Shown piece by piece: positions 1,244 to 10,750 of a stretch of 10,750 nucleotides of DNA. Source of the DNA: Synergistales bacterium. GTDB lineage: Bacteria; Synergistota; Synergistia; Synergistales; Aminiphilaceae. The stretch lies in the NCBI GenBank assembly GCA_021736445.1, contig JAIPGA010000083.1, positions 1 through 10,750 of the forward strand. The letters run 5' to 3'. The notes under the pieces were generated by a model. It saw only the letters and a program-made list of their open reading frames with translations, did no database searches and was not told the DNA's origin. The translations under genes and the position numbers were made by a program. Each line of letters starts with the position of its first letter. Position 1 is the stretch's first letter.

Positions 1244-2050
1244 TTACGAGACGTTGAAGGGGATCACGGCCTCCGGTGTGATCACGCGGAAGGTGAAGGA
1301 TTCCGTGAGGAACAGCTGGACATCCTTCTCCGTGGCCGCCACGTAGCCCACCGAGAGGTCCTGCCCGATGGTGAGCTCCAGATCGTCGCCGCGGGTGGAG
1401 ACCAGGTAGCTCTCGTTGAAATGGGGCAGATAGATGATGTCCCCGCCGTCGGTGATGCTGTCGATGCGCTTGGTCATGGGATAGCCGGTCTCCACGGAGT
1501 AGATGGTGTTCCAGAGATCCTTGCCGGCCACCAGGGCGTAGGGCCCCTCCACGCCGTCGTCGCGCATGGTGTTCACCGCTTCGGCGAGCGCGCGGAGGAT
1601 GCCTGAATTCCTGGCCGTATCCATGTCGATGGAGCGGCTGCTGCCCACCTGCTTCATGCCCACGATACAGCCCTCGTCCAGGCCGTGGTAGACGGCCTCC
1701 TCCTCGAAGCGGGCCATGCTGCGGGCGGCCTCGTCGAGGTTGCCGAAATCGATGTCTTTGGCGCCGCGCACGGCGTTGTCCAGCTCCCAGCGGTCCAGCG
1801 TGAAGGTGCACCGTGTCTCCACCAGGGGCATGATCTCGTGGACGCCGAAGCCCACGTCGTCCTTCTTCCGGTCTTCGTCCACGCGGATCCGGCCGATGGG
1901 ACGGGCCGCGTACTCCCAGCCGTGGGGGCCGGAGACATCTACAAAGCGCCGCGCCGAAAGGTGGCCCTTCAGCACGCTCCGCGCCTGGTCGTCGATCTCC
2001 TCCCACGCCTCGTCGGGAATGGGGGAGAGTGCTCGCTTGAGAATATCCAT
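1244..2050 (-). CDS. Family 1 encapsulin nanocompartment shell protein (HK97-fold, linocin M18-like)
   Basis: The 268-aa product MDILKRALSPIPDEAWEEIDDQARSVLKGHLSARRFVDVSGPHGWEYAA...TFTLDRWELDN...GPYALV...LTIGQDLSVGYVAATEKDVQLFLTESFTFRVITPEA aligns along its whole length with the Thermotoga maritima-type encapsulin ([27 protein letters not shown]...GPYGWEYAA...TFTLDLWELDN...ILGQDLSIGY...LFITETFTFQV). Strong RBS GGAAAGGAG 8 nt upstream of the ATG (reverse complement of 2059-2067). Confidence 0.95.
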   Translation of the reverse strand: MDILKRALSPIPDEAWEEIDDQARSVLKGHLSARRFVDVSGPHGWEYAARPIGRIRVDEDRKKDDVGFGVHEIMPLVETRCTFTLDRWELDNAVRGAKDIDFGNLDEAARSMARFEEEAVYHGLDEGCIVGMKQVGSSRSIDMDTARNSGILRALAEAVNTMRDDGVEGPYALVAGKDLWNTIYSVETGYPMTKRIDSITDGGDIIYLPHFNESYLVSTRGDDLELTIGQDLSVGYVAATEKDVQLFLTESFTFRVITPEAVIPFNVS

Positions 2051-2140
2051 GCTATACGCTCCTTTCCGTGTTCAGCTTCGTCGTTCCTCCGCCCGGCCAG
2101 AGGGAAGATCCCCGGGGCCGGGGGGCGTCCGCAGGGTCGT

Positions 2141-2494
2141 CTACTTCAGACTCCCCAGGCCGAGTCCCGAGCCGTCGGTCCCCGGGGAACCGCCCTCGCC
2201 GTTTCCGCCGCCTGCCTCCTCGACCTCGGTGATCGGTGCCTCGGTGAAGAGGTAGGTCCGGAGATTCTCCTCCCAGGCGGGTACGTTCCTGCGCAGCCAT
2301 TCCAGCACCATGCAGGCGTGTTCGATCTCCTCGTCGCGGTTGTGGGCGAGGATATCGCCGATGGTGTCGTCGCCGGTGGTGGCCACCCGCTGGTGGTACC
2401 AGTCCACGGCCTCCACTTCCTCCTTGAGGCTGTTCAACGCACGATGGATATCCCTGTCTTTCGCCTGGAGTTCCTCTGTCGGTTCATGATACAT
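2141..2494 (-). CDS. Encapsulated ferritin-like protein (EncFtn/Flp) cargo with C-terminal encapsulin targeting peptide
   Basis: The 117-aa product MYHEPTEELQAKDRDIHRALNSLKEEVEAVDWYHQRV...ILAHNRDEEIEHACMVLEWLRRN...LRTYLFTEAPI carries the EncFtn hallmark motifs (HEP..., EAVDWYxQR, HNRDEExEHAxMxLEWLRR, YLFT). It ends in a Gly-rich linker plus GSGLGLGSLK, matching the family-1 cargo-loading peptide consensus (GSLxIGSLK-like). It sits immediately upstream of the shell gene. Confidence 0.9.
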   Translation of the reverse strand: MYHEPTEELQAKDRDIHRALNSLKEEVEAVDWYHQRVATTGDDTIGDILAHNRDEEIEHACMVLEWLRRNVPAWEENLRTYLFTEAPITEVEEAGGGNGEGGSPGTDGSGLGLGSLK

Positions 2495-2514
2495 GGGAGC
2501 ATGTCAACCCCTTT

Positions 2515-2545
2515 CGCAAGAATTACAGTTCCAATTATACACCTT
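2515..2545 (-). promoter_or_regulatory. Candidate promoter of the EncFtn-encapsulin operon in an AT-rich island (perfect -10 TATAAT)
   Basis: The minus strand reads ggtgTATAATtgg, with TATAAT being the reverse complement of 2534-2539, about 40 nt upstream of the EncFtn ATG. It is embedded in a roughly 30-bp AT-rich patch that is conspicuous in GC-rich DNA. The patch contains the direct repeats AATTACA (2521-2527) and AATTATA (2533-2539), 12 bp apart. No good -35 hexamer is present (GC hairpin instead). Confidence 0.45.
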
Positions 2546-2551
2546 TCGGCC

Positions 2552-2577
2552 GGGGCGCCGCCAACAGGCTGCGCCCC
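2552..2577. other. GC-rich stem-loop between the sulfotransferase stop and the EncFtn promoter; possible U-tract-less terminator or operator
   Basis: GGGGCGC (2552-2558) and GCGCCCC (2571-2577) form a perfect 7-bp inverted repeat with a 12-nt loop. It lies 84 nt past the sulfotransferase stop (minus strand) and directly upstream of the TATAAT. No T-tract follows on either strand. Confidence 0.35.
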
Positions 2578-2660
2578 TCCTCTGTGGATGCTATCATACT
2601 TTGGCGGGGATCGGTAAGGTCTCTGCCCTATCGGGACGTCATCCCCGGCATGCCCAGACC

Positions 2661-3644
2661 TCACTGCAGACCAAACCGGCGGAGTCCTTCACGGACCCTG
2701 TCCAGCTCCTCTCCGGTGAGTTCCGCCGACGCCCGGCGCACCGCGAAGGGCTCCGGAGGCTCCTGACGCCGCCGAAGACCGGGCCAGGCATCCTCCAGCT
2801 TCTCCGCCACAGCGGAAAGCACTCCAGCCGGGTCGCGGCAGAGTTCTTCGTAGCGCAGCTCCAGCTTCCGCTCCGCCGGCAGACGGGCAAGCTCGTTGTG
2901 CAGATAGCGGTCGATATAGAAAAGCTGTCCCGCCACCTGGATGCCATAGTGCTCCCGGCAGAGCCGGTCGGCCTCCCTGGGCCGCAGCGAGGCCCACTCC
3001 TCCACGCTTCCCTTGATGCCCCTGCGGAGCTTGACCAGCGACGCGGCATTCTCGAGAGGATCCCTGGTGATCCGGACGAAGATGCTCCGCGGGAAGAGAT
3101 CGGCCATCTCCCGGGTGAACCAGAGGGCGTGGAAGGATTTGAAGACCAGCGGCTTCCCGAAGGCTGCGGCCATGGCGGTGATCCTGCGGACCAGCAGCTC
3201 CCAGTCGATCCCGCTGCGGTCCACAGGCTCCCCCAGATCGCGGTTGCCCAGCAGCTCCGACCAGAAGTATCCGAACTCGTGGGGCTCCTCGATGCCTCCG
3301 GTGCGGCCGTAGCAGGAACGGAAATCCGTCCGGGGCCGGTCGGAGAGGAGCTTTCTGGACAGCGAGACGCCCACTGTCGGCACCTTCCAGAAGGCGGCGA
3401 TCAGATTGTTGATGTAGCCCACATCGAGACAGGAGGAGACCAGCTGCGACAGAAGCGTCGTCCCCGACCGGGGCGCACCGACAAGGAAGACAGGCACTGG
3501 TTCCTCTCCACAGCCGTCAAGGGTCTTCTCCAGCGTCGCTTCCAGCTCTTCCAGACTGATGTTGAGATTCTCCAGAAGGTTCTCTTCGAAGGCGTCCTTC
3601 TCCTTCCAGATCAGCGGCTCCTCCTGCGTCGGATCTGTCCCCAT
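2661..3644 (-). CDS. Sulfotransferase family protein (PAPS-dependent, Sulfotransfer_3-like)
   Basis: The 327-aa product contains VFLVGAPRSGTTLLSQLV, a 5'-phosphosulfate-binding P-loop (PRSGTT) of sulfotransferases. Further on, ...RITRDPLENAASLV... is a 3'-phosphate-binding RDP motif. Its ATG at 3644 lies 2 nt after the stop of the upstream gene (cTAGccATG), i.e. translationally coupled. RBS GGAGG 9 nt upstream. Confidence 0.8.
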   Translation of the reverse strand: MGTDPTQEEPLIWKEKDAFEENLLENLNISLEELEATLEKTLDGCGEEPVPVFLVGAPRSGTTLLSQLVSSCLDVGYINNLIAAFWKVPTVGVSLSRKLLSDRPRTDFRSCYGRTGGIEEPHEFGYFWSELLGNRDLGEPVDRSGIDWELLVRRITAMAAAFGKPLVFKSFHALWFTREMADLFPRSIFVRITRDPLENAASLVKLRRGIKGSVEEWASLRPREADRLCREHYGIQVAGQLFYIDRYLHNELARLPAERKLELRYEELCRDPAGVLSAVAEKLEDAWPGLRRRQEPPEPFAVRRASAELTGEELDRVREGLRRFGLQ

Positions 3645-3646
3645 GG

Positions 3647-4303
3647 CTAGGTTCCTCCCCCTTCCGTGTCCTCCCGGTCCTGGAAGGCTCTCCGGAGCGC
3701 GGCGAAGTCAGGCCGCTCGCCGGAGAAGGTCTGCTCGTCCATACCCTCTCGCTGAATCACCTTGCCCAGGGTCTTCCAGAGGATCTCCAGGTCCAGCGAA
3801 AAGCTCCAGCTGTCCACATACTCCAGATCCTTCCGGAACCGTTCCTCCCAGGAGAGGAGATAGCGTCCCTCGATCTGGGCGAGGCCGGTGATCCCCGGAG
3901 GCAGTCTGTGCCGTTCCATCAGGCGCGGCGGATAGTGGGGCAGATAGACCATCAGCAGCGGCCGGGGACCGACGATACTCATCTCCCCTTTGAGGACGTT
4001 GAACAGCTGCGGCAGCTCGTCGAGACTGCTCTTTCTGAGAAAACGGCCCAGAGGAGTCAGTCTTTCTGCATTAGGCAGCAGATTTCCATCCTGGTCACGT
4101 TCATTTGTCATGGTCCGGAATTTGAGAAGATAGAAAGGAACGCCGCCCCGGCCGGGACGCTGCTGTCGGAAGAGCACGGGCCGTCCCATGGAAACCAGAA
4201 CCAGAAGCGCCACCGCCGCGATGACAGGGGAGAGCAGCAGTGTCGCCGTTCCGGCAATCGTAAGATCGAAGAGACGTTTCCGCAGTGGGTAGGAGGTCTT
4301 CAT
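3647..4303 (-). CDS. PglC-like small monotopic phosphoglycosyltransferase (bacterial sugar transferase family; Und-P:UDP-diamino-sugar-1-P transferase)
   Basis: From the internal ATG at 4303 (RBS GAGGGG 8 nt upstream; the track ORF 3647-4522 is over-extended at its 5' end) the product [66 protein letters not shown]...[31 protein letters not shown]...[13 protein letters not shown]...[20 protein letters not shown] aligns essentially residue-for-residue with Campylobacter PglC (RIFDF...LLSPVIL...IFKFKTM...[24 protein letters not shown]...RPGITGWAQVNGR). It has an extra roughly 30-aa acidic C-terminal tail. Confidence 0.85.
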
Positions 4304-4319
4304 CAATTGTCGCCCCTCA

Positions 4320-5390
4320 TCAGGCTCTGTAGGCCGGGAAGAACCCCTCGCGACGGGGCTCGGCCAGCCCCCGGGACCGTTTCCAGGCGCAGCGCTGTTC
4401 CAGCAGGTCGTCGTACCGCCTGGGATCGACGATCCACTTCCAGATCTTGAAATCGTGCCGCTCCCCGGAAAAACCGGCCTTGAAGAAAAACAGGGAGTCT
4501 TCCCTGTTCCCGACACCTCCACCGAGATGGAAGCGGGACGCCCCCTTCCCGCAGGACCAGCGGCGGACGGTGTCGAAGACCAGTTTCATCGGCGCGGCCG
4601 AGAGGAAGGCCCCCCTGGTCGCGCCGAGGTGATACTGCACCACATCCCCGCAGAGGGTGAATATCCCCGCCGCGGCGAGCTCATCCCGGTAGGTGCAGAC
4701 AAAGAGCTTCGCCGTGAAGTCGCGGATCCGGAGGAAGTCCTCGAAATACCCCCGGGGAAAGAAATAGGATTCCCCGGCCTGGACACGCTCCATATTCTCG
4801 TAATAGGCCTCCACAAAAGCCGCGAGCCAGTCGCCCCTGGTATCGCAGAGACAGCAAAACCCATCCCGCTTCAGCTTGTTGATCCCCCGCTTGTGGTTCT
4901 TCCGGTGCTGCCTCCACTGTTCGTCCAGCGACATCGAGAGATCCACGGACACCGTCTCCGAAAGAGGCACAACTTCCCCCCGGGAGAGCAGCTCATCCTG
5001 TCGGGGAAGCAGGGGGTGCAGCCGCGAGAAGACCGACAGGATCCCCCGGCTGTCGCAGTAGGATGCCAGTTCGTCCATGAAGGGAGCCAGGAGAGGACGG
5101 GCGTTCTCGCCCGAAACGAGAGGCCCGGGATAGCCGTAGACCGATGTGGCGTCCCGCAGCCCTTCGCCGCGGAGTCCTTCCACCGTACCGTCGAGGGAGC
5201 GGATCAGCAGCGGCAGCGCCACGAAGGCCTCGCCCCCGGAGAGAACAAAGAGCAGCGGCTCGCCCTCTCCGTTCTGTCGGGCGAGCTCGTGGTATGAGGC
5301 CAGATGATAGAAATCGTACCGCCCGGCACGTCGGATTGTCTGGTTCCACCTTGCAGGCTCCTGTAGCGACAAGAGATGTAGTTTGGTCAC
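4320..5390 (-). CDS. FemAB-family (BioF2-like / Acetyltransf_6, GNAT-fold) acyl- or aminoacyl-transferase
   Basis: The product carries SVYGYPGPLVSGEN (compare FemA FYSNRGPVIDYEN) and VVQYHLGATRGAFLSAAPMKLVFDTVRRW (compare FemA VVYYAGGTSNAFRHFAGSYAVQWEMINYA). The start is more likely GTG at 5390 (GGAG 7 nt upstream) than the track's TTG at 5423, which lacks an RBS. Its stop overlaps the RBS of the PglC-like gene. Confidence 0.65.
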   Translation of the reverse strand: MTKLHLLSLQEPARWNQTIRRAGRYDFYHLASYHELARQNGEGEPLLFVLSGGEAFVALPLLIRSLDGTVEGLRGEGLRDATSVYGYPGPLVSGENARPLLAPFMDELASYCDSRGILSVFSRLHPLLPRQDELLSRGEVVPLSETVSVDLSMSLDEQWRQHRKNHKRGINKLKRDGFCCLCDTRGDWLAAFVEAYYENMERVQAGESYFFPRGYFEDFLRIRDFTAKLFVCTYRDELAAAGIFTLCGDVVQYHLGATRGAFLSAAPMKLVFDTVRRWSCGKGASRFHLGGGVGNREDSLFFFKAGFSGERHDFKIWKWIVDPRRYDDLLEQRCAWKRSRGLAEPRREGFFPAYRA

Positions 5391-5431
5391 ATGATCACTC
5401 CAAGCTGACGTTGCGGTATGCAACCCACATA

Positions 5432-7258
5432 TCAGACCATTACCCTTTGCAGTGTTTCCATCAACCCTGCATCGTCTTCTTCGTTGAGCAGATCCGCGAT
5501 CGCAGCCCCCACAGATTCGACGGCAACCCCCTCATTCCTGGACAGGAAGATCTTCTCGTGGGCCGTGCGGTCCACGCAGTCCGGGTCGTAGAAGAGCTCC
5601 TCGAAGAGCTTCTCGCCGGGGCGCTTGCCGGTGAAGGCGATCTGGATGTCTTTGCCCGGGGTGTAGCCGTGGAGGCGGATGAGCATCTCCGCCAGCTCGA
5701 CGATCCGCACCGGTTCGCCCATGTCGAGGACGAAGAGCTCGCCGCCCCTGCCCAGCGCCGCCGACTGGAGCACCAGGCTCACCGCCTCGGGGATGAGCAT
5801 GAAGTAGCGCCGCATCTCCGGGTGGGTCACCGTCACCGGGCCGCCCGAAGCGATCTGCTCCTCGAACTTGGGGACCACGCTCCCCCGGCTGCCCAGGACG
5901 TTGCCGAAGCGCACCGCCGCATAGGCCGTTTCGGGGAACACCCGCTGCTGTTCCTGCAGCACCAGCTCGGCCAGCCGCTTGGTGGCGCCCATGACGTTGG
6001 CGGGGTTCACCGCTTTGTCGGTGGAGATCATCACCATCCGGCTGCAGCCCTGTTCGCCGGCGAGACGGGCCACCGTAGCGGTCCCGTGGGCGTTCACGCG
6101 GAGCGCCTCCCTGGCGTTGCTCTCCATGAGGGGCACATGCTTGTGCGCCGCGGCGTGGAAGACGATATCCGGCGTGTATTTCGCAAAGACCCGCTCCATG
6201 GAGGGCGCGTCGGCCACGTCGGCCACCACGGGGATGACGGGGTGCTCCGTGCAGCCTTCCAGCAGCCTGTAGAGGGAGTGTTCCCCGTGGCCCAGGGCCA
6301 CCACGTCGCTGGGGGCGTACTCCAGCACCTGTCGGCAGATCTCGCTGCCGATGGACCCCCCCGCGCCGGTCACCAGCACCCGCCGGCCCCGGAGCAGCGC
6401 CCCGATGCCGCCCATGTCGAGCTCCACCGGCTCCCTGCCCAGGAGGTCTTCCAGCCTCACATTGCGGAGCCGGTTCATGGAAACGCCGCGGCCTGCCAGT
6501 TCGTGGAGCGAAGGCAGCACCCGCACCTCCACACCCTCCTCGGCGAGCCGGTCCAGCAGCCCCCGCAGCAGACGCCCGGCGGCGCTGGGGATCGCCACCA
6601 GGACAACCTCCACGCCGTTCCGGTCGATGAGGCCGGGAAGCTCCGCAACCATTCCCAGGACAGTCAGTCCGGCGATCTGCATCCCCCGCTTGGCCGGATC
6701 GTCGTCAACAAAACCCGCCAGCTCCAGGTCGCCGTCGTTGCGCTGCACGTCCCGGGCCAGAAGCGTCCCCGCCTCGCCGGCGCCCACCACTAGAGCACGG
6801 CGGCGTTTGGCTCCGGAGGGGGCGACAGGGGCCATCCGGCAGAGCCGCCAGGAGACCCGCAGCGCCGCCAGCAGCATGAGCCCCGAGATAGCCATGATCG
6901 CCAGGGAGGTGCGGGGAACGATGAGCCACTCGGGGAGGGCCGTCACCACCCAGAAGAGCAGAAGGCCGGGCAGGTACCACCGGGCGAGCCGGAGGTACTC
7001 CTCCACGCTGGCCTGTGGCCAGAGCACCCGGTAGAGCCCGCCGATCCAGAGGGAGGCGGCGATGGAAAGGGAAAACAGCAGCGCCGCCAGGGCGCAGTCC
7101 GCCAGATAGCGGGGCTCCAGAAAGAGGGTCAGCCGCAGGGCGTAGCCGATATAGGCGGCGAAGGCCAGCAACAGAAGATCCAGCGCGACCAGGCGTCTCC
7201 GGTTCCCCGCCCAGGCAAGCCACTGCCCCGCCAGCCAGAGCTTAGCCCGCCGCACCAT
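5432..7258 (-). CDS. PglF/CapD/WbpM-like membrane-bound UDP-GlcNAc 4,6-dehydratase (polysaccharide biosynthesis protein, SDR-extended)
   Basis: The 608-aa product has an N-terminal region of about 140 aa with 4 predicted TM helices (LLLLAFAAYIGYALRL..., LLLFWVVTALPEWLIV...). A Rossmann-like GxxGxxG segment (ALVVGAGEAGTLL) follows. The catalytic domain starts at VLVTGAGGSIGSEICRQVL, with ...MISTDKAVNPANVMGATKRLAE... and RFGNVLGSRGSV; TGAGGSIG, STDKAV and GATK are canonical for the family. Its ATG at 7258 overlaps the upstream gene's end by 17 nt. Confidence 0.9.
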   Translation of the reverse strand: MVRRAKLWLAGQWLAWAGNRRRLVALDLLLLAFAAYIGYALRLTLFLEPRYLADCALAALLFSLSIAASLWIGGLYRVLWPQASVEEYLRLARWYLPGLLLFWVVTALPEWLIVPRTSLAIMAISGLMLLAALRVSWRLCRMAPVAPSGAKRRRALVVGAGEAGTLLARDVQRNDGDLELAGFVDDDPAKRGMQIAGLTVLGMVAELPGLIDRNGVEVVLVAIPSAAGRLLRGLLDRLAEEGVEVRVLPSLHELAGRGVSMNRLRNVRLEDLLGREPVELDMGGIGALLRGRRVLVTGAGGSIGSEICRQVLEYAPSDVVALGHGEHSLYRLLEGCTEHPVIPVVADVADAPSMERVFAKYTPDIVFHAAAHKHVPLMESNAREALRVNAHGTATVARLAGEQGCSRMVMISTDKAVNPANVMGATKRLAELVLQEQQRVFPETAYAAVRFGNVLGSRGSVVPKFEEQIASGGPVTVTHPEMRRYFMLIPEAVSLVLQSAALGRGGELFVLDMGEPVRIVELAEMLIRLHGYTPGKDIQIAFTGKRPGEKLFEELFYDPDCVDRTAHEKIFLSRNEGVAVESVGAAIADLLNEEDDAGLMETLQRVMV

Positions 7259-8426
7259 GAAGGGCCTCGTGGAGGCTGTCTGTCACATAGTCGATCTCCT
7301 CGTCGGACAGATCGGTGTAGAACGGCAGCGCCAGCACCGAGGCGCAGACCGCTTCGAGCCCCGGGAAGTCGCCCTCCGCGAACCCGAACCGCTCGGCGTA
7401 GAAGGGCTGGTAGGGGATGGGCGTGAAGTAGGGCTTGCAGGCCACACCCCTGGCCTGGAGGGCCTCCATGACGGCGTCCCGGTCGATCCCTTCATCCAGG
7501 CGCACCACGTAGACAAACCAGCTCATCCGGTCGCACCAGTCACCCGGCGCCGGCGGGGTCACCCCGGGGATCGAAGCGAGCCGCCGGCCGTACCGTTCGG
7601 CCACTGCGGCGCGCCGGTCCACGATCGCGTCGAGCCGGCCGATCTGCGACCGGCCCAGGGCCGCCGACATCTCGTCGATCCGGTAGTTGTAGCCCAGCCG
7701 CACATGAGCGAGCCAGGCGCCGCTGTCGTCCCGCCCCTGGTTGATCAGCGACCGGACCGTCGCCGCGATGTCGTCGCGGTCGGTGACGATCATGCCGCCC
7801 TCGCCGGTGGTGATCTGCTTGTTGGGGTAGAAGGCGAAGGCGCCGGCGTCGCCGAAGGCCCCGCACATCCGCCCGAACGCCCTGGTGCCCAGGGCCTCGC
7901 AGCTGTCCTCCACAAAGAACAGCCCGTACTCCGTGGCGATCCGCTCGTACTCGGCCAGCGGCGCGGGCATGCCGAAGACATCCACCAGCAGCATCCCCCT
8001 GAGGCGTTCCGGGGCCAGGGGGGCATCCTCGCCGGGGAGGGTGACGGCCCCCTGGCGCACGCCCTCGATGGTCTGCCGGAGCGTTTCCGGCGAGGGCACC
8101 AGCGTTTCGGGATCGATATCCCCAAAGAGCGGCGCCGCCCCCGTCATGAGGATCACATTGCTGCTGGAGATAAAGCTGAAGGGCGTGGTGAGCACCACAT
8201 CGCCCGGCCCGACACCCAGTGCCTCCAGGGTCACGTGCAGCGCCGCCGTGCCGCTGGAGCAGGCCACGGCGTGCCGCACCCCCACCGTTTCGGCGACGGC
8301 CTGCTCGAAGGCGGCGATCTCCGGGCCCAGGGCCACACGGCCCGACCGGAGCACCGCCAGCACGGCCTGGATGTCGCCGTCGCTGATCTGTCCGCTGGAA
8401 AGGGGGATCTCACGCACCCGCACCAC
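7242..8426 (-). CDS. DegT/DnrJ/EryC1/StrS-family PLP-dependent sugar aminotransferase (PglE/WbpE-like)
   Basis: The 394-aa product has the N-terminal EIPLSSGQISDGDIQAVLAVLRSGRVALGPEIAAFEQAVAETVGVRHAVACSSGTAALHVTLEALGVGPGDVVLTTPFSFISS. This is the classic DegT fold with GPEVxxFE, SSGTxAL and TTPFTF-type motifs. The PLP-lysine motif is FAFYPNKQITTGEGG. Start is GTG at 8426 or, with better RBS spacing (GAGGTGG, 6 nt), GTG at 8417. Confidence 0.9.
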   Translation of the reverse strand: MVRVREIPLSSGQISDGDIQAVLAVLRSGRVALGPEIAAFEQAVAETVGVRHAVACSSGTAALHVTLEALGVGPGDVVLTTPFSFISSSNVILMTGAAPLFGDIDPETLVPSPETLRQTIEGVRQGAVTLPGEDAPLAPERLRGMLLVDVFGMPAPLAEYERIATEYGLFFVEDSCEALGTRAFGRMCGAFGDAGAFAFYPNKQITTGEGGMIVTDRDDIAATVRSLINQGRDDSGAWLAHVRLGYNYRIDEMSAALGRSQIGRLDAIVDRRAAVAERYGRRLASIPGVTPPAPGDWCDRMSWFVYVVRLDEGIDRDAVMEALQARGVACKPYFTPIPYQPFYAERFGFAEGDFPGLEAVCASVLALPFYTDLSDEEIDYVTDSLHEALHGAAG

Positions 8427-8523: not shown

Positions 8524-8961
8524 CTAGAGGATCAGGTTGCTGCCGCCCTGTTGCCCGCCGCCGCGGCGCTCCAGTTCGTTGAGCATGTCCGGCGAGGCCA
8601 CGTCGATACGGGGCTGCTGCTGGGACTGCTGGGCCTCCTTGAGCTGCTGCTCGTACTCGGCCATGTTCCGTTTCAGGCCCTCCACATCGCCCTTGATCCA
8701 CTGGAGGATGCTCTCGGCAACGGCCTCCACGGTCTCCTCGTCGGGAAGCTCGCTGACGAGCTCCAGCTCCTTGAGCATATTGTGTTCCTCCCGGATGGAG
8801 TCCTTGATCTCCTCGTCGGTGATCAGGCCCTTGTTGTAGAGAACCCTGGAGATGATATTGAGCCGGGTCTTCAGGTTCTCGTCGGCCATGGCCAGGCCTT
8901 CCATCCTGCTGAGGAGCATCTGGATCAGTTCGTCGAGATTTACCTGTCTCTGCGACGCCAT
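8524..8961 (-). CDS. Hypothetical small acidic, predicted all-helical/coiled-coil protein (145 aa) with Gly/Gln-rich linker and hydrophobic C-terminal tail
   Basis: The ATG at 8961 has a strong RBS (AAAGGAGG, 8-nt spacer). The product is MASQRQVNLDELIQMLLSRMEGLAMADENLKTRLNIISRVLYNKGLITDEEIKDSIREEHNMLKELELVSELPDEETVEAVAESILQWIKGDVEGLKRNMAEYEQQLKEAQQSQQQPRIDVASPDMLNELERRGGGQQGGSNLIL. It has an ordinary amino-acid composition, unlike the antisense artefact ORFs. I could not place it in a family from memory. Confidence 0.7.
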   Translation of the reverse strand: MASQRQVNLDELIQMLLSRMEGLAMADENLKTRLNIISRVLYNKGLITDEEIKDSIREEHNMLKELELVSELPDEETVEAVAESILQWIKGDVEGLKRNMAEYEQQLKEAQQSQQQPRIDVASPDMLNELERRGGGQQGGSNLIL

Positions 8962-9046: not shown

Positions 9047-10048
9047 CTACGGCTTGTCCCGGTACGCATCGACGGCGATCTCCCCGTCGATGAGCTGCTG
9101 TTCGATTCCACGGAGCCGCTCCTGCAGGTCCTCGGGGACATTCCGCTTCATCTCCGGCGTCCAGGAGAGCCCCACACCGCCCTCCCTGAACCCCAGGCTG
9201 TAGGTGTGACCCGCTTTGTAGCTGCCGTCGAGCCTGGCCTTGATCAGGTCGTAGACGGCCACGTCGCAGCGTTTCACCATGCTGCCCAGCACATGATCCG
9301 GGGCCAGCCACTCCTGGGGAGCGTCCACGCCGATAGCCCGGAAGCCCCCCTCCCTGGCCGCCCGGATCACACCCTCGCCGCTCCCGCCGGCGATCTGGAA
9401 GATCACGTCGGCGCCCCGGCTGTGCAGGGAGAGGGCCGTCTCCCTGCCCCCGGCGGGATCGGCCCAGCTGTCCACAAAAGCGACAAGGATCTCGATGTCG
9501 GAATCCACGTACCCGGCGCCCTGCCTGTAGCCCGCCAGGAAGTTTCGGATCACCGGGACATCCTCGCCGCAGACGGCGCCGATCGTGCCGGTCCTGGTCA
9601 TCAATCCCGCCAGGGCGCCGGCGAGGAAGGCGCCCTCGTTCTCCTTGAAGTCCACATAGCTGGCGTGGGCCACATCGCCGGACATGTCGATCCGGACGAA
9701 ATCGGTCTCCGGGAACCGCGGAACAACCTCTTCGAAGGCCTCCTCCAGCTCGAAGCCCACCACAAAGACCAGGTCGGCGTTCCGGGCCGCCCTCCGGAGG
9801 GAGGGCAGATAGGCACCGGGGTCACCCCGGCACTCCAGCACCCTCCCCCGCACCTCCAGCTCCCGTTGGGCCTTCTCCAGCCCGGCGTTGGAGCTGTCGT
9901 AGAAGGATTTGTCCCCCAGGGTATCGCCGATGACCAGGGCCACCTCCAGCGGCGCGGCGCAGGCCGCAGCAGCAGCACTGAGCAGCGACAGCGCGGCAAG
10001 CATCGCAATCCATCTCTTCACGGCTGCAGTCACCTCTTCTCTGTACAT
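9047..10048 (-). CDS. BMP-family ABC-transporter substrate-binding lipoprotein (PnrA/Med/TmpC-like, nucleoside-binding)
   Basis: The product ...KRWIAMLAALSLLSAAAAACAAPLEVALVIGDTLGDKSFYDSSNAGLEKA...NADLVFVVGF...GAFLAGALAGLMTRTGTIGAV...DVIFQIAGGSGEGV... follows the BMP (PF02608) pattern (KVALVTDVGGIDDKSFNQSA..., GYLAG, VYQVAGGTGAGV). It has a lipoprotein signal peptide with an Ala-rich h-region and a lipobox Cys. Start is ATG at 10048 (MYREEVTAAVKRW...) or GTG at 10060. Confidence 0.85.
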   Translation of the reverse strand: MYREEVTAAVKRWIAMLAALSLLSAAAAACAAPLEVALVIGDTLGDKSFYDSSNAGLEKAQRELEVRGRVLECRGDPGAYLPSLRRAARNADLVFVVGFELEEAFEEVVPRFPETDFVRIDMSGDVAHASYVDFKENEGAFLAGALAGLMTRTGTIGAVCGEDVPVIRNFLAGYRQGAGYVDSDIEILVAFVDSWADPAGGRETALSLHSRGADVIFQIAGGSGEGVIRAAREGGFRAIGVDAPQEWLAPDHVLGSMVKRCDVAVYDLIKARLDGSYKAGHTYSLGFREGGVGLSWTPEMKRNVPEDLQERLRGIEQQLIDGEIAVDAYRDKP

Positions 10049-10184: not shown

Positions 10185-10750
10185 ATGCCGGGACGCCACG
10201 GCAGGAGAGGTCACGACAGAGCGCCGGGGGAACGCCGATGGTACATCCAGACCCTCAAGGAGGCGGGGTACCGGGTCACCAGCCAGCGCCGGACCATTAT
10301 CGACGTCCTGCTGGCCCACAGAGGCGAGCATCTCAACGCACGGGAGCTGATGGACCATATCGCCGGGGAGGACCCCGGCGTGGGCTTCGCTACGGTCTAC
10401 CGGACGCTGGAGATCCTGGTGGAGACAAATCTGCTGCACCAGATCAACCTGGAGGAGGGGTTCGCCCGCTACGAGGTGCCCGACGACCGCATGCACATCC
10501 ACCTCTTCTGCTGCCGCTGCGGCAGGGTGATCCACCTCCCCGAGGACGGCGACAAGGAGCAGACCCTCGCCGCCTGGGCGGAGGGCACGGGATTCTCGCT
10601 GCTGCCGCAGACCCTGGAGCTCCAGGGGCTCTGCGAGGACTGCCGGAGGGAGGCGGCCGCCCCCGGCAGGCCGAGACGACGTGGCCGGTGCGGCAACCGG
10701 ATCGTCGAGAATGGGCCCTGGTGCCCACAAGTCCGGGGCCAAGGGGGCTT
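10185..10750 (+). CDS. Fur-family metalloregulator (Fur/PerR/Zur-type), 3' end beyond the right window edge
   Basis: Hand translation gives MPGRHGRRGHDRAPGERRWYIQTLKEAGYRVTSQRRTIIDVLLAHRGEHLNARELMDHIAGEDPGVGFATVYRTLEILVETNLLHQINLEEGFARYEVPDDRMHIHLFCCRCGRVIHLPEDGDKEQTLAAWAEGTGFSLLPQTLELQGLCEDCRR.... It aligns with E. coli Fur (LKKAGLKVTLPRLKILEVL...ATVYRVLNQF...HHDHLICLDCGKVIEF...GHCAEGDC) and has two CxxC pairs forming a structural Zn site. There is no stop codon before the window end. Confidence 0.8.
   Translation, partial: MPGRHGRRGHDRAPGERRWYIQTLKEAGYRVTSQRRTIIDVLLAHRGEHLNARELMDHIAGEDPGVGFATVYRTLEILVETNLLHQINLEEGFARYEVPDDRMHIHLFCCRCGRVIHLPEDGDKEQTLAAWAEGTGFSLLPQTLELQGLCEDCRREAAAPGRPRRRGRCGNRIVENGPWCPQVRGQGG

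Follow-up and report, generated by a model that had tools for sequence, protein, structure and literature searches.

The window, a stretch of 10,750 nucleotides from an uncultured Synergistales bacterium, holds at positions 2661-8426 five tightly packed minus-strand genes, which encode in turn a DegT aminotransferase, PglF-type dehydratase, FemAB-like (here FemX-like) transferase, PglC-type phosphoglycosyl transferase (PGT) and sulfotransferase (Table 1). Both this order and the expected families PF02397, PF01041, PF02719 and PF13469 had been given in an initial annotation of the DNA, and each of the four models indeed matches its expected gene. Judged by their sequences, the five genes look like one operon for a lipid-carried bacillosamine-type sugar bearing an amino acid and sulfate.

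Table 1. Genes of the putative operon, with positions in the window
Product	Position	Strand	Match and gene call
DegT/DnrJ/EryC1 PLP sugar aminotransferase	7242..8426	-	PF01041 E 4.7e-104; called 7242-8417, 391 aa, on source contig
Membrane-anchored PglF/WbpM/EpsC-type UDP-GlcNAc 4,6-dehydratase, 608 aa	5432..7258	-	PF02719 E 1e-108 and PF13727
FemX-like double-GNAT transferase	4320..5423	-	PF13480 E 5.9e-11; called 4320-5390, 356 aa
Small monotopic PglC-type phosphoglycosyl transferase, 218 aa	3647..4303	-	PF02397 (Bac_transf) E 6.7e-61
PAPS-type sulfotransferase, 327 aa	2661..3644	-	PF13469 (Sulfotransfer_3) E 2.2e-17

The dehydratase gene starts inside the end of the DegT gene (17-nt overlap) and is followed by the FemX-like gene after 41 nt, counted from the called start of the latter, or 8 nt, counted from a TTG start; the open reading frame from this TTG at 5423 encodes 367 aa, whereas the called gene begins 11 codons further in, at 5390. 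A further 16 nt separate the FemX-like gene from the PGT gene, whose longest open reading frame spans 3647-4522 and whose true start, according to the gene call, is the ATG at 4303. Only 2 nt (TAG-CC-ATG) lie between the PGT and sulfotransferase genes. A promoter/terminator scan gave nothing above background that would delimit the operon.

The source contig is a 16,117-bp piece of a MAG, and all contig-wide statements on genes made here cover these ~16 kb. As had been noted, the window encodes no flippase, polymerase, other glycosyltransferase or oligosaccharyltransferase, and the gene calls show none elsewhere on the contig either. A mono- or short glycan, suggested initially on this ground, is a candidate product as read from these ~16 kb, and the small span of genome in view counts against the pathway proposed below. 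Likewise, Pfam scans found no Hexapep or PglD_N match in the operon proteins scanned, and none is present among the called genes of the contig.

Dehydratase, aminotransferase and phosphoglycosyl transferase

The dehydratase fits the PglF-type retaining UDP-GlcNAc 4,6-dehydratases, having a Polysacc_synt_2 domain, Thr-Asp-Lys replacing the SDR Tyr and an N-terminal membrane region. It scores 295 bits (E 1e-86) against C. jejuni PglF (5bju) but 118 bits against the inverting PseB type (2gn4), and its T-D-K motif aligns with that of PglF ('MISTDKAV', core 'STDKAV'). The N-terminal ~260 residues match CoA_binding_3 and the N-terminal part of EPS sugar-transferase models.

The PGT sequence carries the fingerprint of the UDP-diNAcBac-type small monotopic PGTs, scoring 181 bits against C. 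concisus PglC (8e37/8g1n) versus 124 bits against WbaP. The motifs described for these enzymes comprise an Asp-Glu dyad, PRP, a GLLLP loop and an aromatic box formed in Cc PglC by Y118, Y122, W150, F154 and F197, and the study that describes them also sets an HMM cut-off of 200 bits (PMC10186338). Here D95-E96, P113-R-P115 and G73-N-L-L-P77 (GxLLP) are kept, together with four of the five box residues (Y120, Y124, W152 and F156); the fifth (F197) falls beyond the aligned region, and a C-terminal tail is present. The position of PglC Glu117 is occupied by Val.

The aminotransferase sequence makes it a clear member of the DegT family, with a 'FYPNKQ' lysine motif in its translation. Its top NCBIfam match is PseC (287 bits, under the cut-off of that model), and among solved structures it scores highest against ArnB (200 bits) and perosamine synthetase (193 bits), compared with 96 and 93 bits for the PglE structures 1o61 and 4ztc. 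By score it is thus no close relative of PglE, so that the C4 configuration of the product may be gluco or galacto. The enzyme logic read from the locus in the initial annotation, with dehydration, 4-amination, N-acylation and PglC-type transfer to a polyprenyl phosphate, is supported, not least by the scores and motifs of the dehydratase and the PGT, but the aminotransferase is not PglE-like (96 bits to PglE versus 200 to ArnB), and this poor likeness to PglE counts against the pathway proposed below.

The FemX-like protein and its putative acyl donor

Two Pfam models had been suggested for the FemAB-like protein, of which PF13480 (Acetyltransf_6) is its only match (43 bits versus a cut-off of 22), while PF02388 (FemAB proper) gives none at E<0.01. 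Many close homologues do have a precomputed PF02388 match, with P0066 scoring 36.7 bits. NCBI names the protein a GNAT family N-acetyltransferase, no NCBIfam model, TIGR03019 (PEP-CTERM-associated FemAB-related) included, matches it at E<0.01, and a single-sequence phmmer search of the PDB returned noise only. When a family profile was searched against the PDB, FemX_Wv was found with an E value of 1.4e-14 and Sbb17 with 1e-5, and F303-K304, invariant in 59 family members, was aligned to F304-K305 of FemX_Wv ('VFKHVF'). K305 of FemX has been described as catalytic, and the equivalent Lys329 and Phe328 of DhpH-C have been validated by mutagenesis (PMC12945691).

In the AF2 model (pLDDT 95.5, pTM 0.91), the protein consists of two tandem GNAT domains with a substrate cleft. 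Foldseek superimposes it on FemX_Wv with TM scores of 0.71/0.76 over ~350 alignment columns (E 1.8e-15), the sequence identity to solved Fem enzymes being only 16-19%. PDB ranks 1-28 are all taken by aminoacyl-tRNA-dependent transferases, including FemX_Wv, Sbb17/Sba18 complexed with streptothrisamine, FemA, FemX_Sa and MprF/aaPGS, and the CoA-dependent tandem GNATs appear only below these 28, with far lower scores. On this model the protein is a genuine FemX-type double-GNAT that retains the F304/K305 pair, and its FemAB-like identity, as opposed to a different fold, is upheld.

The fold-match ranking, together with a basic stretch (RKNHKRGINKLKRDG) that sits where FemX has SKTKSKIKRPFRDG, lends indirect support to aminoacyl-tRNA as the putative acyl donor, and the enzyme is predicted to N-acylate the sugar 4-amine in an aminoacyl-tRNA-dependent manner. 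Counting against this proposal are the placement in an 'acetyltransferase' family by PF13480, the GNAT name and the missing PF02388 and NCBIfam matches, as well as the lack of tRNA genes on the contig and of any aminoacyl-tRNA synthetase gene nearby. Since no Rfam family is found in the window either, the locus seems to contain neither a dedicated tRNA nor a riboswitch.

The arrangement is by no means confined to this locus: in a one-genome-per-species collection, relatives of the FemX-like protein occur in 495 stretches from many phyla. Among the 79 loci examined, a PglC-like gene is found no more than 10 kb away from the FemX-like gene in 69, a DegT gene in 62 and a PglF-like gene in 43, with all three within 5 kb in 32, and the FemX-like gene usually shares a strand block with DegT and PglF. 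The six neighbourhoods that were inspected with their annotation all belong to polysaccharide loci of the conventional kind, with glycosyltransferases and Wzx/Wzy or Wza/Wzc. Cultured carriers of the module include Olleya sediminilitoris, Chryseobacterium sp. JM1, Deinococcus hohokamensis, and Flagellimonas and Maribacter strains.

The genes directly adjoining the FemX-like gene, counted by tblastn with the PglD-like query run on related loci only, encode a PglD-like hexapeptide acetyltransferase (8/79 loci), a GNAT (5 loci) or a PylC-like ATP-grasp enzyme (7 loci), and one ornithine cyclodeaminase flanks a FemX-like gene. Such amide-forming enzymes fit a product with a free amine. Because a PglD-like gene is often adjacent, and is even fused to the FemX-like one in P0109, the FemX-like enzyme does not simply stand in for PglD; its suggested place in the PglD slot is in keeping with the absence of PglD from this contig but not with these eight loci and the fusion. 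Two other fusions, P0066 and P0089 (584 aa), have an N-terminal extension of ~230 aa, for which a formyltransferase domain was considered and dropped, as Pfam gives no match there.

It is nevertheless conceivable, though rather unlikely, that the enzyme substitutes for PglD by using acyl-CoA, giving diNAcBac or another N4-acyl bacillosamine with neither amino acid nor tRNA involved. A precedent would be the ATP-grasp enzyme Pyl of UDP-yelosamine synthesis (PMC11257628), and the sole Pfam match ('Acetyltransferase (GNAT)'), the NCBI name, the absence of another acetyltransferase from the operon and the diNAcBac-type fingerprint of the PGT would all agree with it. However, this reading is at odds with the 28 tRNA-dependent best fold matches, far above the CoA-using tandem GNATs, and with the invariant Phe-Lys pair of FemX, and it would render the PglD-like enzymes so often adjacent or fused redundant if both acetylated the same amine.

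We consider it unlikely, too, that aminoacyl-tRNA is used on a different acceptor, namely the Und-PP-linked sugar after the PGT step, or the 3-hydroxyl in an ester, with the 4-amine left free or modified by another enzyme. In S. aureus, FemA, FemB and FemX work on lipid II, and MprF esterifies phosphatidylglycerol. Lipid-acting enzymes of this kind (FemA, FemX_Sa and MprF/aaPGS) are among the fold matches, but the nearest folds belong to enzymes with soluble substrates, FemX_Wv with its UDP-linked acceptor and Sbb17 with an amino-sugar amine. PglD acetylating N4 and the Fem-like enzyme acting on O3 would explain why the two co-occur; yet in the relatives that build polymers an O3 ester would keep the chain from being extended, and in the present operon, which has no PglD, N4 would be left free in front of a PGT with the fingerprint of a diNAcBac user. 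The Caulobacter protein HfsK, of the PF13480 type, is active at the membrane (PMC5362036), as this reading would have it.

The sulfotransferase and its coupling to the PGT

By its motifs and modelled fold, the last enzyme is a sulfotransferase of the PAPS-dependent type. The 5'-PSB 'GAPRSGTT' (56-63; G56/R59/G61/T63) and the 3'-PB 'RDPLENAAS' (194-202; R194/P196/S202) are intact and are invariant or nearly so in the family, in which P121-H122-E123 are further invariants. With the AF2 model (pLDDT 93.9), PDB matches down to rank 45 are exclusively of the sulfotransferase fold (Stf9, Stf1, TPST, CurM ST and 3-OST), at distant TM scores of 0.4-0.5. A single-sequence phmmer search of the PDB gave marginal matches only (CurM ST, E 0.03; Stf9, 0.1), and no NCBIfam model matches at E<0.01.

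The enzyme had been regarded as merely appended to the pathway, a view that its relatives contradict, since the family is recurrently found directly 3' of a PglC-type PGT. Of the 17 close homologues with room for it, 9 have PglC immediately 5' of them, and at least seven proteins (seven among the best 120 matches) are PGT-sulfotransferase fusions, with the domains in the same order as the genes. The full PGT-sulfotransferase-Fem-DegT-PglF set recurs in three loci (L064, L082 and L086) and the first three members without the rest in two (L023 and L035), and in L087 an APS kinase adjoins the sulfotransferase-Fem pair. In 4 of 15 sulfotransferase loci, there is a PglD-like neighbour and no FemX-like gene, meaning that the target need not be an aminoacyl group; this pairing argues for sulfation on the sugar. 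Polymer builders need O3 of the reducing-end bacillosamine for chain extension, and sulfation of O3 cannot therefore be general.

That the sulfotransferase acts on another glycan residue or an unrelated metabolite, its position being incidental, seems quite improbable. The sequence does not reveal its acceptor, the fold matches are distant, and most homologues of <38% identity have no PGT or Fem gene next to them; against this stand the 2-nt gap to the PGT gene, the recurrent fusions in gene order, the PGT-sulfotransferase-Fem order in unrelated phyla and the adjoining APS kinase. A role of the FemX-like protein as a Fem enzyme of the usual kind, branching peptidoglycan and just adjoining sugar genes, is highly improbable, for although it has the fold and catalytic motif of FemX, the PglC-type genes near its homologues in 69 of the 79 loci, which span many phyla, usually in one strand block with DegT/PglF, the PglD-like fusion and the low identity to solved Fem enzymes all speak against it.

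Proposed pathway and known systems

Taken together, we would give an about even chance to a pathway in which the operon turns UDP-GlcNAc into a polyprenyl-diphosphate-linked, N4-aminoacylated and sulfated 2-acetamido-4-amino-2,4,6-trideoxyhexose of the bacillosamine type. The dehydratase, PglF-type by family, would make UDP-2-acetamido-2,6-dideoxy-4-hexulose, and the DegT-family enzyme is predicted to aminate C4 of this UDP-4-keto-6-deoxy-HexNAc. The FemX-like double-GNAT, which has the fold and the Phe-Lys pair, would then transfer an amino acid from aminoacyl-tRNA to the 4-amine, a step modelled on FemX, which aminoacylates UDP-MurNAc-pentapeptide, and on Sbb17/Orf11 acting on the amino sugar streptothrisamine. 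The PGT, with its PglC family and diNAcBac-type fingerprint, would transfer the sugar phosphate to undecaprenyl phosphate, and the PGT-coupled sulfotransferase, with its motifs and its fused relatives, would use PAPS to sulfate the product on the cytoplasmic side, candidate sites being the sugar O3, an aminoacyl side-chain hydroxyl and the aminoacyl alpha-amine. In the relatives, the module would provide the sugar with which Wzx/Wzy-type surface polysaccharides begin, and the free aminoacyl amine would probably be capped by the PglD-like or GNAT neighbours or extended by the ATP-grasp ligase. O-antigens do contain N-(N-acetyl-alanyl)-, N-acetylglycyl- and N-(3-hydroxybutyryl-alanyl)-amino-deoxy sugars (PMC3210612; PMC8074265).

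More generally, we tentatively propose, at somewhat less than an even chance, that a widespread FemX-like clade aminoacylates UDP-bacillosamine-type 4-amines from aminoacyl-tRNA and that, with a dedicated PGT-coupled or fused sulfotransferase, this yields a sulfated, possibly N-sulfated, aminoacyl-bacillosamine on a lipid carrier. If the FemX-like enzyme uses charged tRNA, the making of surface polysaccharides and glycoproteins would, in many phyla, draw directly on translation, and the missing enzyme would be named for the N-aminoacyl amino sugars reported in O-antigens for decades, and also in capsules. That sulfotransferase and PGT are recurrently paired or fused suggests that glycans are sulfated as early as the first, lipid-linked step of their assembly, on which we found no paper in the library searched. 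Our literature search also returned no paper on FemAB with bacillosamine, on a phosphoglycosyl transferase-sulfotransferase fusion or on the combination of a FemX-like enzyme and a sulfotransferase with bacillosamine, in accord with the earlier remark that this chemistry is undescribed.

The operon is a variant of a known, UDP-diNAcBac-like pathway type. It shares with PglF-PglE-PglD-PglC of C. jejuni and EpsC-EpsN-EpsM-EpsL of B. subtilis the dehydratase type, the DegT step and a small monotopic PGT with diNAcBac-type motifs (PMC10186338), but differs in having a FemX-fold protein instead of the hexapeptide PglD, an aminotransferase that is not close to PglE and a sulfotransferase coupled to the PGT; unlike in C. 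jejuni, a PglA-type glycosyltransferase, a flippase and the PglB oligosaccharyltransferase are absent from the contig. In the Bacillus cereus UDP-yelosamine pathway (Pat, Pyl and a small PGT), an enzyme other than PglD, encoded next to a small PGT, likewise acylates N4 of UDP-4-amino-6-deoxy-HexNAc (PMC11257628), although there the acylator is an ATP-grasp ligase adding 2-oxoglutarate, not a Fem-fold protein, and no sulfotransferase is involved.

With FemX of Weissella viridescens and Sbb17/Sba18/Orf11 of streptothricin-type pathways, the FemX-like protein shares a double-GNAT without coiled-coil insertion and the invariant Phe-Lys pair. The acceptor of FemX is UDP-linked, and Sbb17/Orf11 aminoacylate an amino-sugar amine (PMC12945691; PDB 9wqx); the present protein is set apart from them by its 16-19% identity, by a context of surface-glycan synthesis instead of peptidoglycan or antibiotic synthesis and by a donor that is predicted.

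In the Type B flagellin glycan of Clostridium difficile RT027, the amine of Fuc3N is capped with Ala and Gly and a sulfo group is present, and among the genes of the locus are those for a FemAB-superfamily protein, an ATP-grasp enzyme and an ornithine cyclodeaminase (PMC5207246; PMC5207245), recalling the PylC-like ATP-grasp genes (7 loci) and the one ornithine cyclodeaminase that flank FemX-like genes here. In that system, however, the sulfo group comes from taurine with no sulfotransferase gene, the Fem-like gene has a putative role only, and the sugar is a terminal 3-amino sugar placed by a glycosyltransferase, as opposed to a 4-amino sugar loaded by a PGT. Finally, Caulobacter crescentus HfsK and the CelD/BcsL-type PF13480 proteins, from systems that have no bacillosamine module, resemble the FemX-like protein by description, as Fem-related GNATs that are genetically coupled to exopolysaccharide and have been proposed to acylate its precursors (PMC5362036).

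The operon, its sugar pathway and its flanks

Pfam agrees gene by gene with the five-gene series that the initial annotation had described at 2661–8426, all on the minus strand, and neighbouring genes in it either overlap or lie 2 to 41 nt apart. The 10.75-kb window is part, in reversed orientation, of the assembly contig Logan SRR12088347_100964 (16,117 bp), and the lack of a flippase, polymerase, further glycosyltransferase or oligosaccharyltransferase, first recorded for the window, holds for this entire contig, which carries no PAPS-synthesis gene either.

Features of the window (all positions in window coordinates)
Feature	Position	Strand	Match or remark
Family 1 encapsulin shell protein	1244–2050	minus	NF041155, 271 bits
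Encapsulated ferritin-like cargo	2141–2494	minus	TIGR04535, 153 bits; C-terminal GSGLGLGSLK targeting-peptide-like tail
Sulfotransfer_3 protein	2661–3644	minus	Pfam E 2.2e-17
Bac_transf phosphoglycosyl transferase (PGT), 218 aa	real start 4303	minus	Pfam E 6.7e-61
PF13480 'Acetyltransf_6' protein (FemX-like)	4320–5423	minus	Pfam E 5.9e-11
Polysacc_synt_2 dehydratase, 608 aa	5432–7258	minus	Pfam E 1e-108; N-terminal membrane/CoA_binding_3 region
DegT aminotransferase	7242–8426	minus	Pfam E 4.7e-104
145-aa protein	8524–8961	minus	no match in Pfam or NCBIfam
Bmp-type binding protein	9047–10003	minus
Fur-family regulator	10185–10721	plus

The dehydratase matches C. jejuni PglF with 295 bits (E 1e-86), as against 118–149 bits for inverting or epimerising relatives, and keeps the Thr-Asp-Lys motif of PglF. 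The PGT scores 181 bits against C. concisus PglC and 124 bits against WbaP. When aligned to the published fingerprint for diNAcBac-specific PGTs (PMC10186338), it has D95-E96 as the Asp-Glu dyad, the PRP motif, a GNLLP version of the loop motif and four of the five aromatic box residues (Y120, Y124, W152 and F156), together with the C-terminal tail that is absent from non-diNAcBac PGTs. The aminotransferase is a clear DegT enzyme, yet by score it is not PglE-like (96 bits for PglE versus 200 bits for ArnB), so that the C4 configuration may be gluco (bacillosamine) or galacto (AAT-Gal type); the PGT fingerprint favours gluco as the predicted configuration. The DegT genes adjoining FemX-like genes elsewhere (loci L007–L085) fall into two classes of similarity to the window enzyme, one at ~45–49% identity (300–340 bits) and one at ~30% (125–180 bits), so that two different aminotransferase lineages serve the same module.

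Third-position GC is lower in the FemX-like (0.80), PGT (0.73) and sulfotransferase (0.81) genes (2661–5390) than in the dehydratase (0.88) and aminotransferase (0.91) genes (5432–8417) or in most of the flanking genes (0.875–0.90 for encapsulin, the 145-aa ORF and the Bmp gene; 0.82 for the ferritin-like cargo). This hints that the three-gene block may have a history different from that of the dehydratase-aminotransferase pair.

The flanks are unrelated. Immediately downstream lies a complete two-gene encapsulin system (1244–2494, minus strand), and an FAD oxidoreductase is also found on this side. Upstream are the 145-aa ORF, ~100 nt from the DegT gene on the same strand and Gln/Gly-rich in its C-terminal part, the Bmp-type gene with the Fur gene divergent from it, a GGDEF protein, a Na/sulfate-symporter-family transporter and a metallophosphatase. 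The Fur gene and the iron-storage encapsulin system stand on opposite sides of the sugar operon. The transporter (Na_sulph_symp/CitMHS family, 1734–3020 of source contig L002) is outside the window, ~3.7 kb past the DegT end of the operon, and could import sulfate or dicarboxylates.

The FemX-like protein and its relatives

A single-sequence search with the FemX-like protein found nothing in the PDB or NCBIfam. A profile of 59 homologues reaches Weissella FemX with E 1.4e-14 and, with E 1e-5, Sbb17, a peptide synthase that depends on aminoacyl-tRNA, and aligns the family-invariant F303-K304 on FemX F304-K305. FemX K305 has been described as the catalytic residue, and the equivalent pair of DhpH-C, Lys329 and Phe328, has been validated by mutagenesis (PMC12945691). 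The AlphaFold model (pLDDT 95.5) has two GNAT domains without the FemA coiled-coil insertion, and its Foldseek ranks 1–28 are aminoacyl-tRNA-dependent transferases throughout: FemX_Wv (TM 0.71/0.76), FemA, FemX_Sa, aminoacyl-phosphatidylglycerol synthases, and Sbb17 and Sba18, the structures of which contain the amino sugar streptothrisamine. With the FemX fold in the model and the catalytic Phe-Lys pair kept, the FemAB-like identity given initially stands, and we infer that the enzyme uses aminoacyl-tRNA as its donor. The reading of it as an acyl-CoA-dependent analogue of PglD is unlikely; the CoA-dependent tandem GNATs (VipF, clavulanate GNAT and Eis) rank after the aminoacyl-tRNA-dependent enzymes, with much weaker scores.

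The clade is large, with 2,247 matches at E<1e-5 among 8,000 candidates scored, and scanning a collection with a single genome for each species gave 495 confirmed stretches with FemX-like genes, in Chloroflexota, Verrucomicrobiota, Bacteroidota, Planctomycetota, Acidobacteriota, Deinococcus and others. Among the 79 best loci, a gene within 10 kb is PglC-like in 69, DegT in 62 and PglF-like in 43, and all three are found within 5 kb in 32. The annotated neighbourhoods inspected are conventional polysaccharide loci with GT4 glycosyltransferases, Wzx, Wzy, Wza/Wzc and asparagine-synthase-like genes. Thus the concern that the module is simply part of a large conventional locus applies to the relatives, whereas the visible flanks in this genome show no such locus. 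Two FemX-like proteins, P0066 and P0089 (584 aa), carry a ~230-aa N-terminal extension without a Pfam match.

The proposal that a FemAB-like protein takes the place of PglD holds in part: a different, putative N4-acylating enzyme is present here, but PglD is not generally absent in relatives. Of the 79 loci, 8 have a PglD-like hexapeptide gene directly beside the FemX-like gene and 18 have one within 3 kb of it, and in P0109 (L006, 4874–6796) a FemX-like domain is fused to a PglD_N and Hexapep acetyltransferase. Other direct neighbours are PylC-like ATP-grasp ligases (7 loci), GNAT acetyltransferases (5), methyltransferases (3) and a second Acetyltransf_6 gene (2); ornithine cyclodeaminase flanks the gene in one locus. 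Pairs of FemX-like with PglD-like or GNAT enzymes would be redundant if both acetylated N4, and would be explained if an amino acid were added by the FemX-like enzyme and its free amine then capped or extended. The other main rival reading, in which the Fem-like enzyme acts further along the pathway or on a different nucleophile, is slightly less probable than that of an acyl-CoA-dependent PglD analogue.

The sulfotransferase and its coupling to the PGT

In the sulfotransferase family alignment, the 5'-PSB loop GAPRSGTT (residues 56–63) and the P-H-E triplet 121–123 are invariant and the 3'-PB motif (R194-D-P...S202) is present, so the identity assigned initially is upheld. The AlphaFold model (pLDDT 93.9) matches sulfotransferases only, all of them distant (Stf9, Stf1, TPST, CurM ST and 3-OST, TM 0.4–0.5), and the acceptor is not readable from the modelled fold.

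The initial annotation had described this gene as appended to the pathway. Against a mere appendage, 7 of the best 120 homologues, from the same sulfotransferase subfamily (P0131, P0137, P0182, P0197, P0199, P0204 and P0217), are fusions of an N-terminal Bac_transf and a C-terminal sulfotransferase domain, which is the order of the two adjacent window genes; for P0137 the NCBI annotation reads 'Undecaprenyl phosphate N,N'-diacetylbacillosamine 1-phosphate transferase'. Fusions of this type were not found described in the literature searched. In 27 metagenomic loci (≥38% identity; only loci with room counted), a PglC-like gene is immediately upstream of the sulfotransferase in 9 of 17, also counter to a mere appendage, and the gene immediately downstream is FemX-like in 6 of 15 and PglD-like in 4 of 15.

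The set PGT-Sulfo-Fem-DegT-PglF is repeated in a Parafilimonas MAG, a Dokdonia MAG and locus L086, while Anaerolineae and Flavipsychrobacter MAGs have PGT-Sulfo-Fem, with no DegT or PglF found there. The window order, DegT-PglF-Fem-PGT-Sulfo, departs from the usual PGT-Sulfo-Fem-DegT-PglF, so the linkage survives rearrangement. In locus L087 (10001–12755), the sulfotransferase, FemX-like and APS kinase genes stand in a row beside a Wzx/Wzy/glycosyltransferase locus, where the kinase would be a nearby source of PAPS for the sulfation predicted here.

The sole free hydroxyl of the sugar is O3, and a sulfate there would end the chain. This fits the present contig, which has no glycosyltransferase, but disagrees with the polymer loci of relatives. 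The alternative is sulfation of the aminoacyl group, on its alpha-amine or a hydroxyl, which leaves the pairs of sulfotransferase and PglD-like genes unexplained.

Predicted product and comparison with known systems

Taken together, the pathway follows the Pgl/Eps bacillosamine logic with another, putative N4-acylating enzyme, and the best-supported mechanism, to which we give about an even chance, is that the operon makes an Und-PP-linked, N4-aminoacylated, sulfated bacillosamine-type sugar. The observation behind the initial annotation is confirmed and its reading of the pathway supported in part. The interest lies in a conserved and widespread module, predicted from sequence and models, more than in this one Synergistales locus. 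No account of a bacillosamine pathway with a FemX-like enzyme, or of a sulfotransferase coupled to a PGT, was found in the literature searched.

Sugars with a capped amino acid of this kind are well documented, Qui3N and Qui4N being known with N-acetyl-alanyl, N-acetylglycyl and 3-hydroxybutyryl-alanyl groups (PMC3210612; PMC8074265), and no enzyme assigned to them was found in the literature searched. One characterised case of a different N4-acylating enzyme is that of UDP-yelosamine, with the ATP-grasp Pyl beside a small PGT (PMC11257628). HfsK of Caulobacter is likewise Fem-related and tied to exopolysaccharide modification (PMC5362036). Among known glycans, the closest analogue is that of C. 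difficile type B flagellin, whose Fuc3N bears Ala, Gly and taurine as caps (PMC5207246; PMC5207245). Its sulfo group, in contrast, derives from taurine, and the Fem-like gene has a putative role in this glycan. The C. difficile locus carries genes for a FemAB-superfamily protein, an ATP-grasp enzyme and an ornithine cyclodeaminase (PMC5207246; PMC5207245), and the FemX-like genes studied here, flanked by PylC-like ATP-grasp genes in 7 loci and by an ornithine cyclodeaminase gene in one, give the same trio of gene types.
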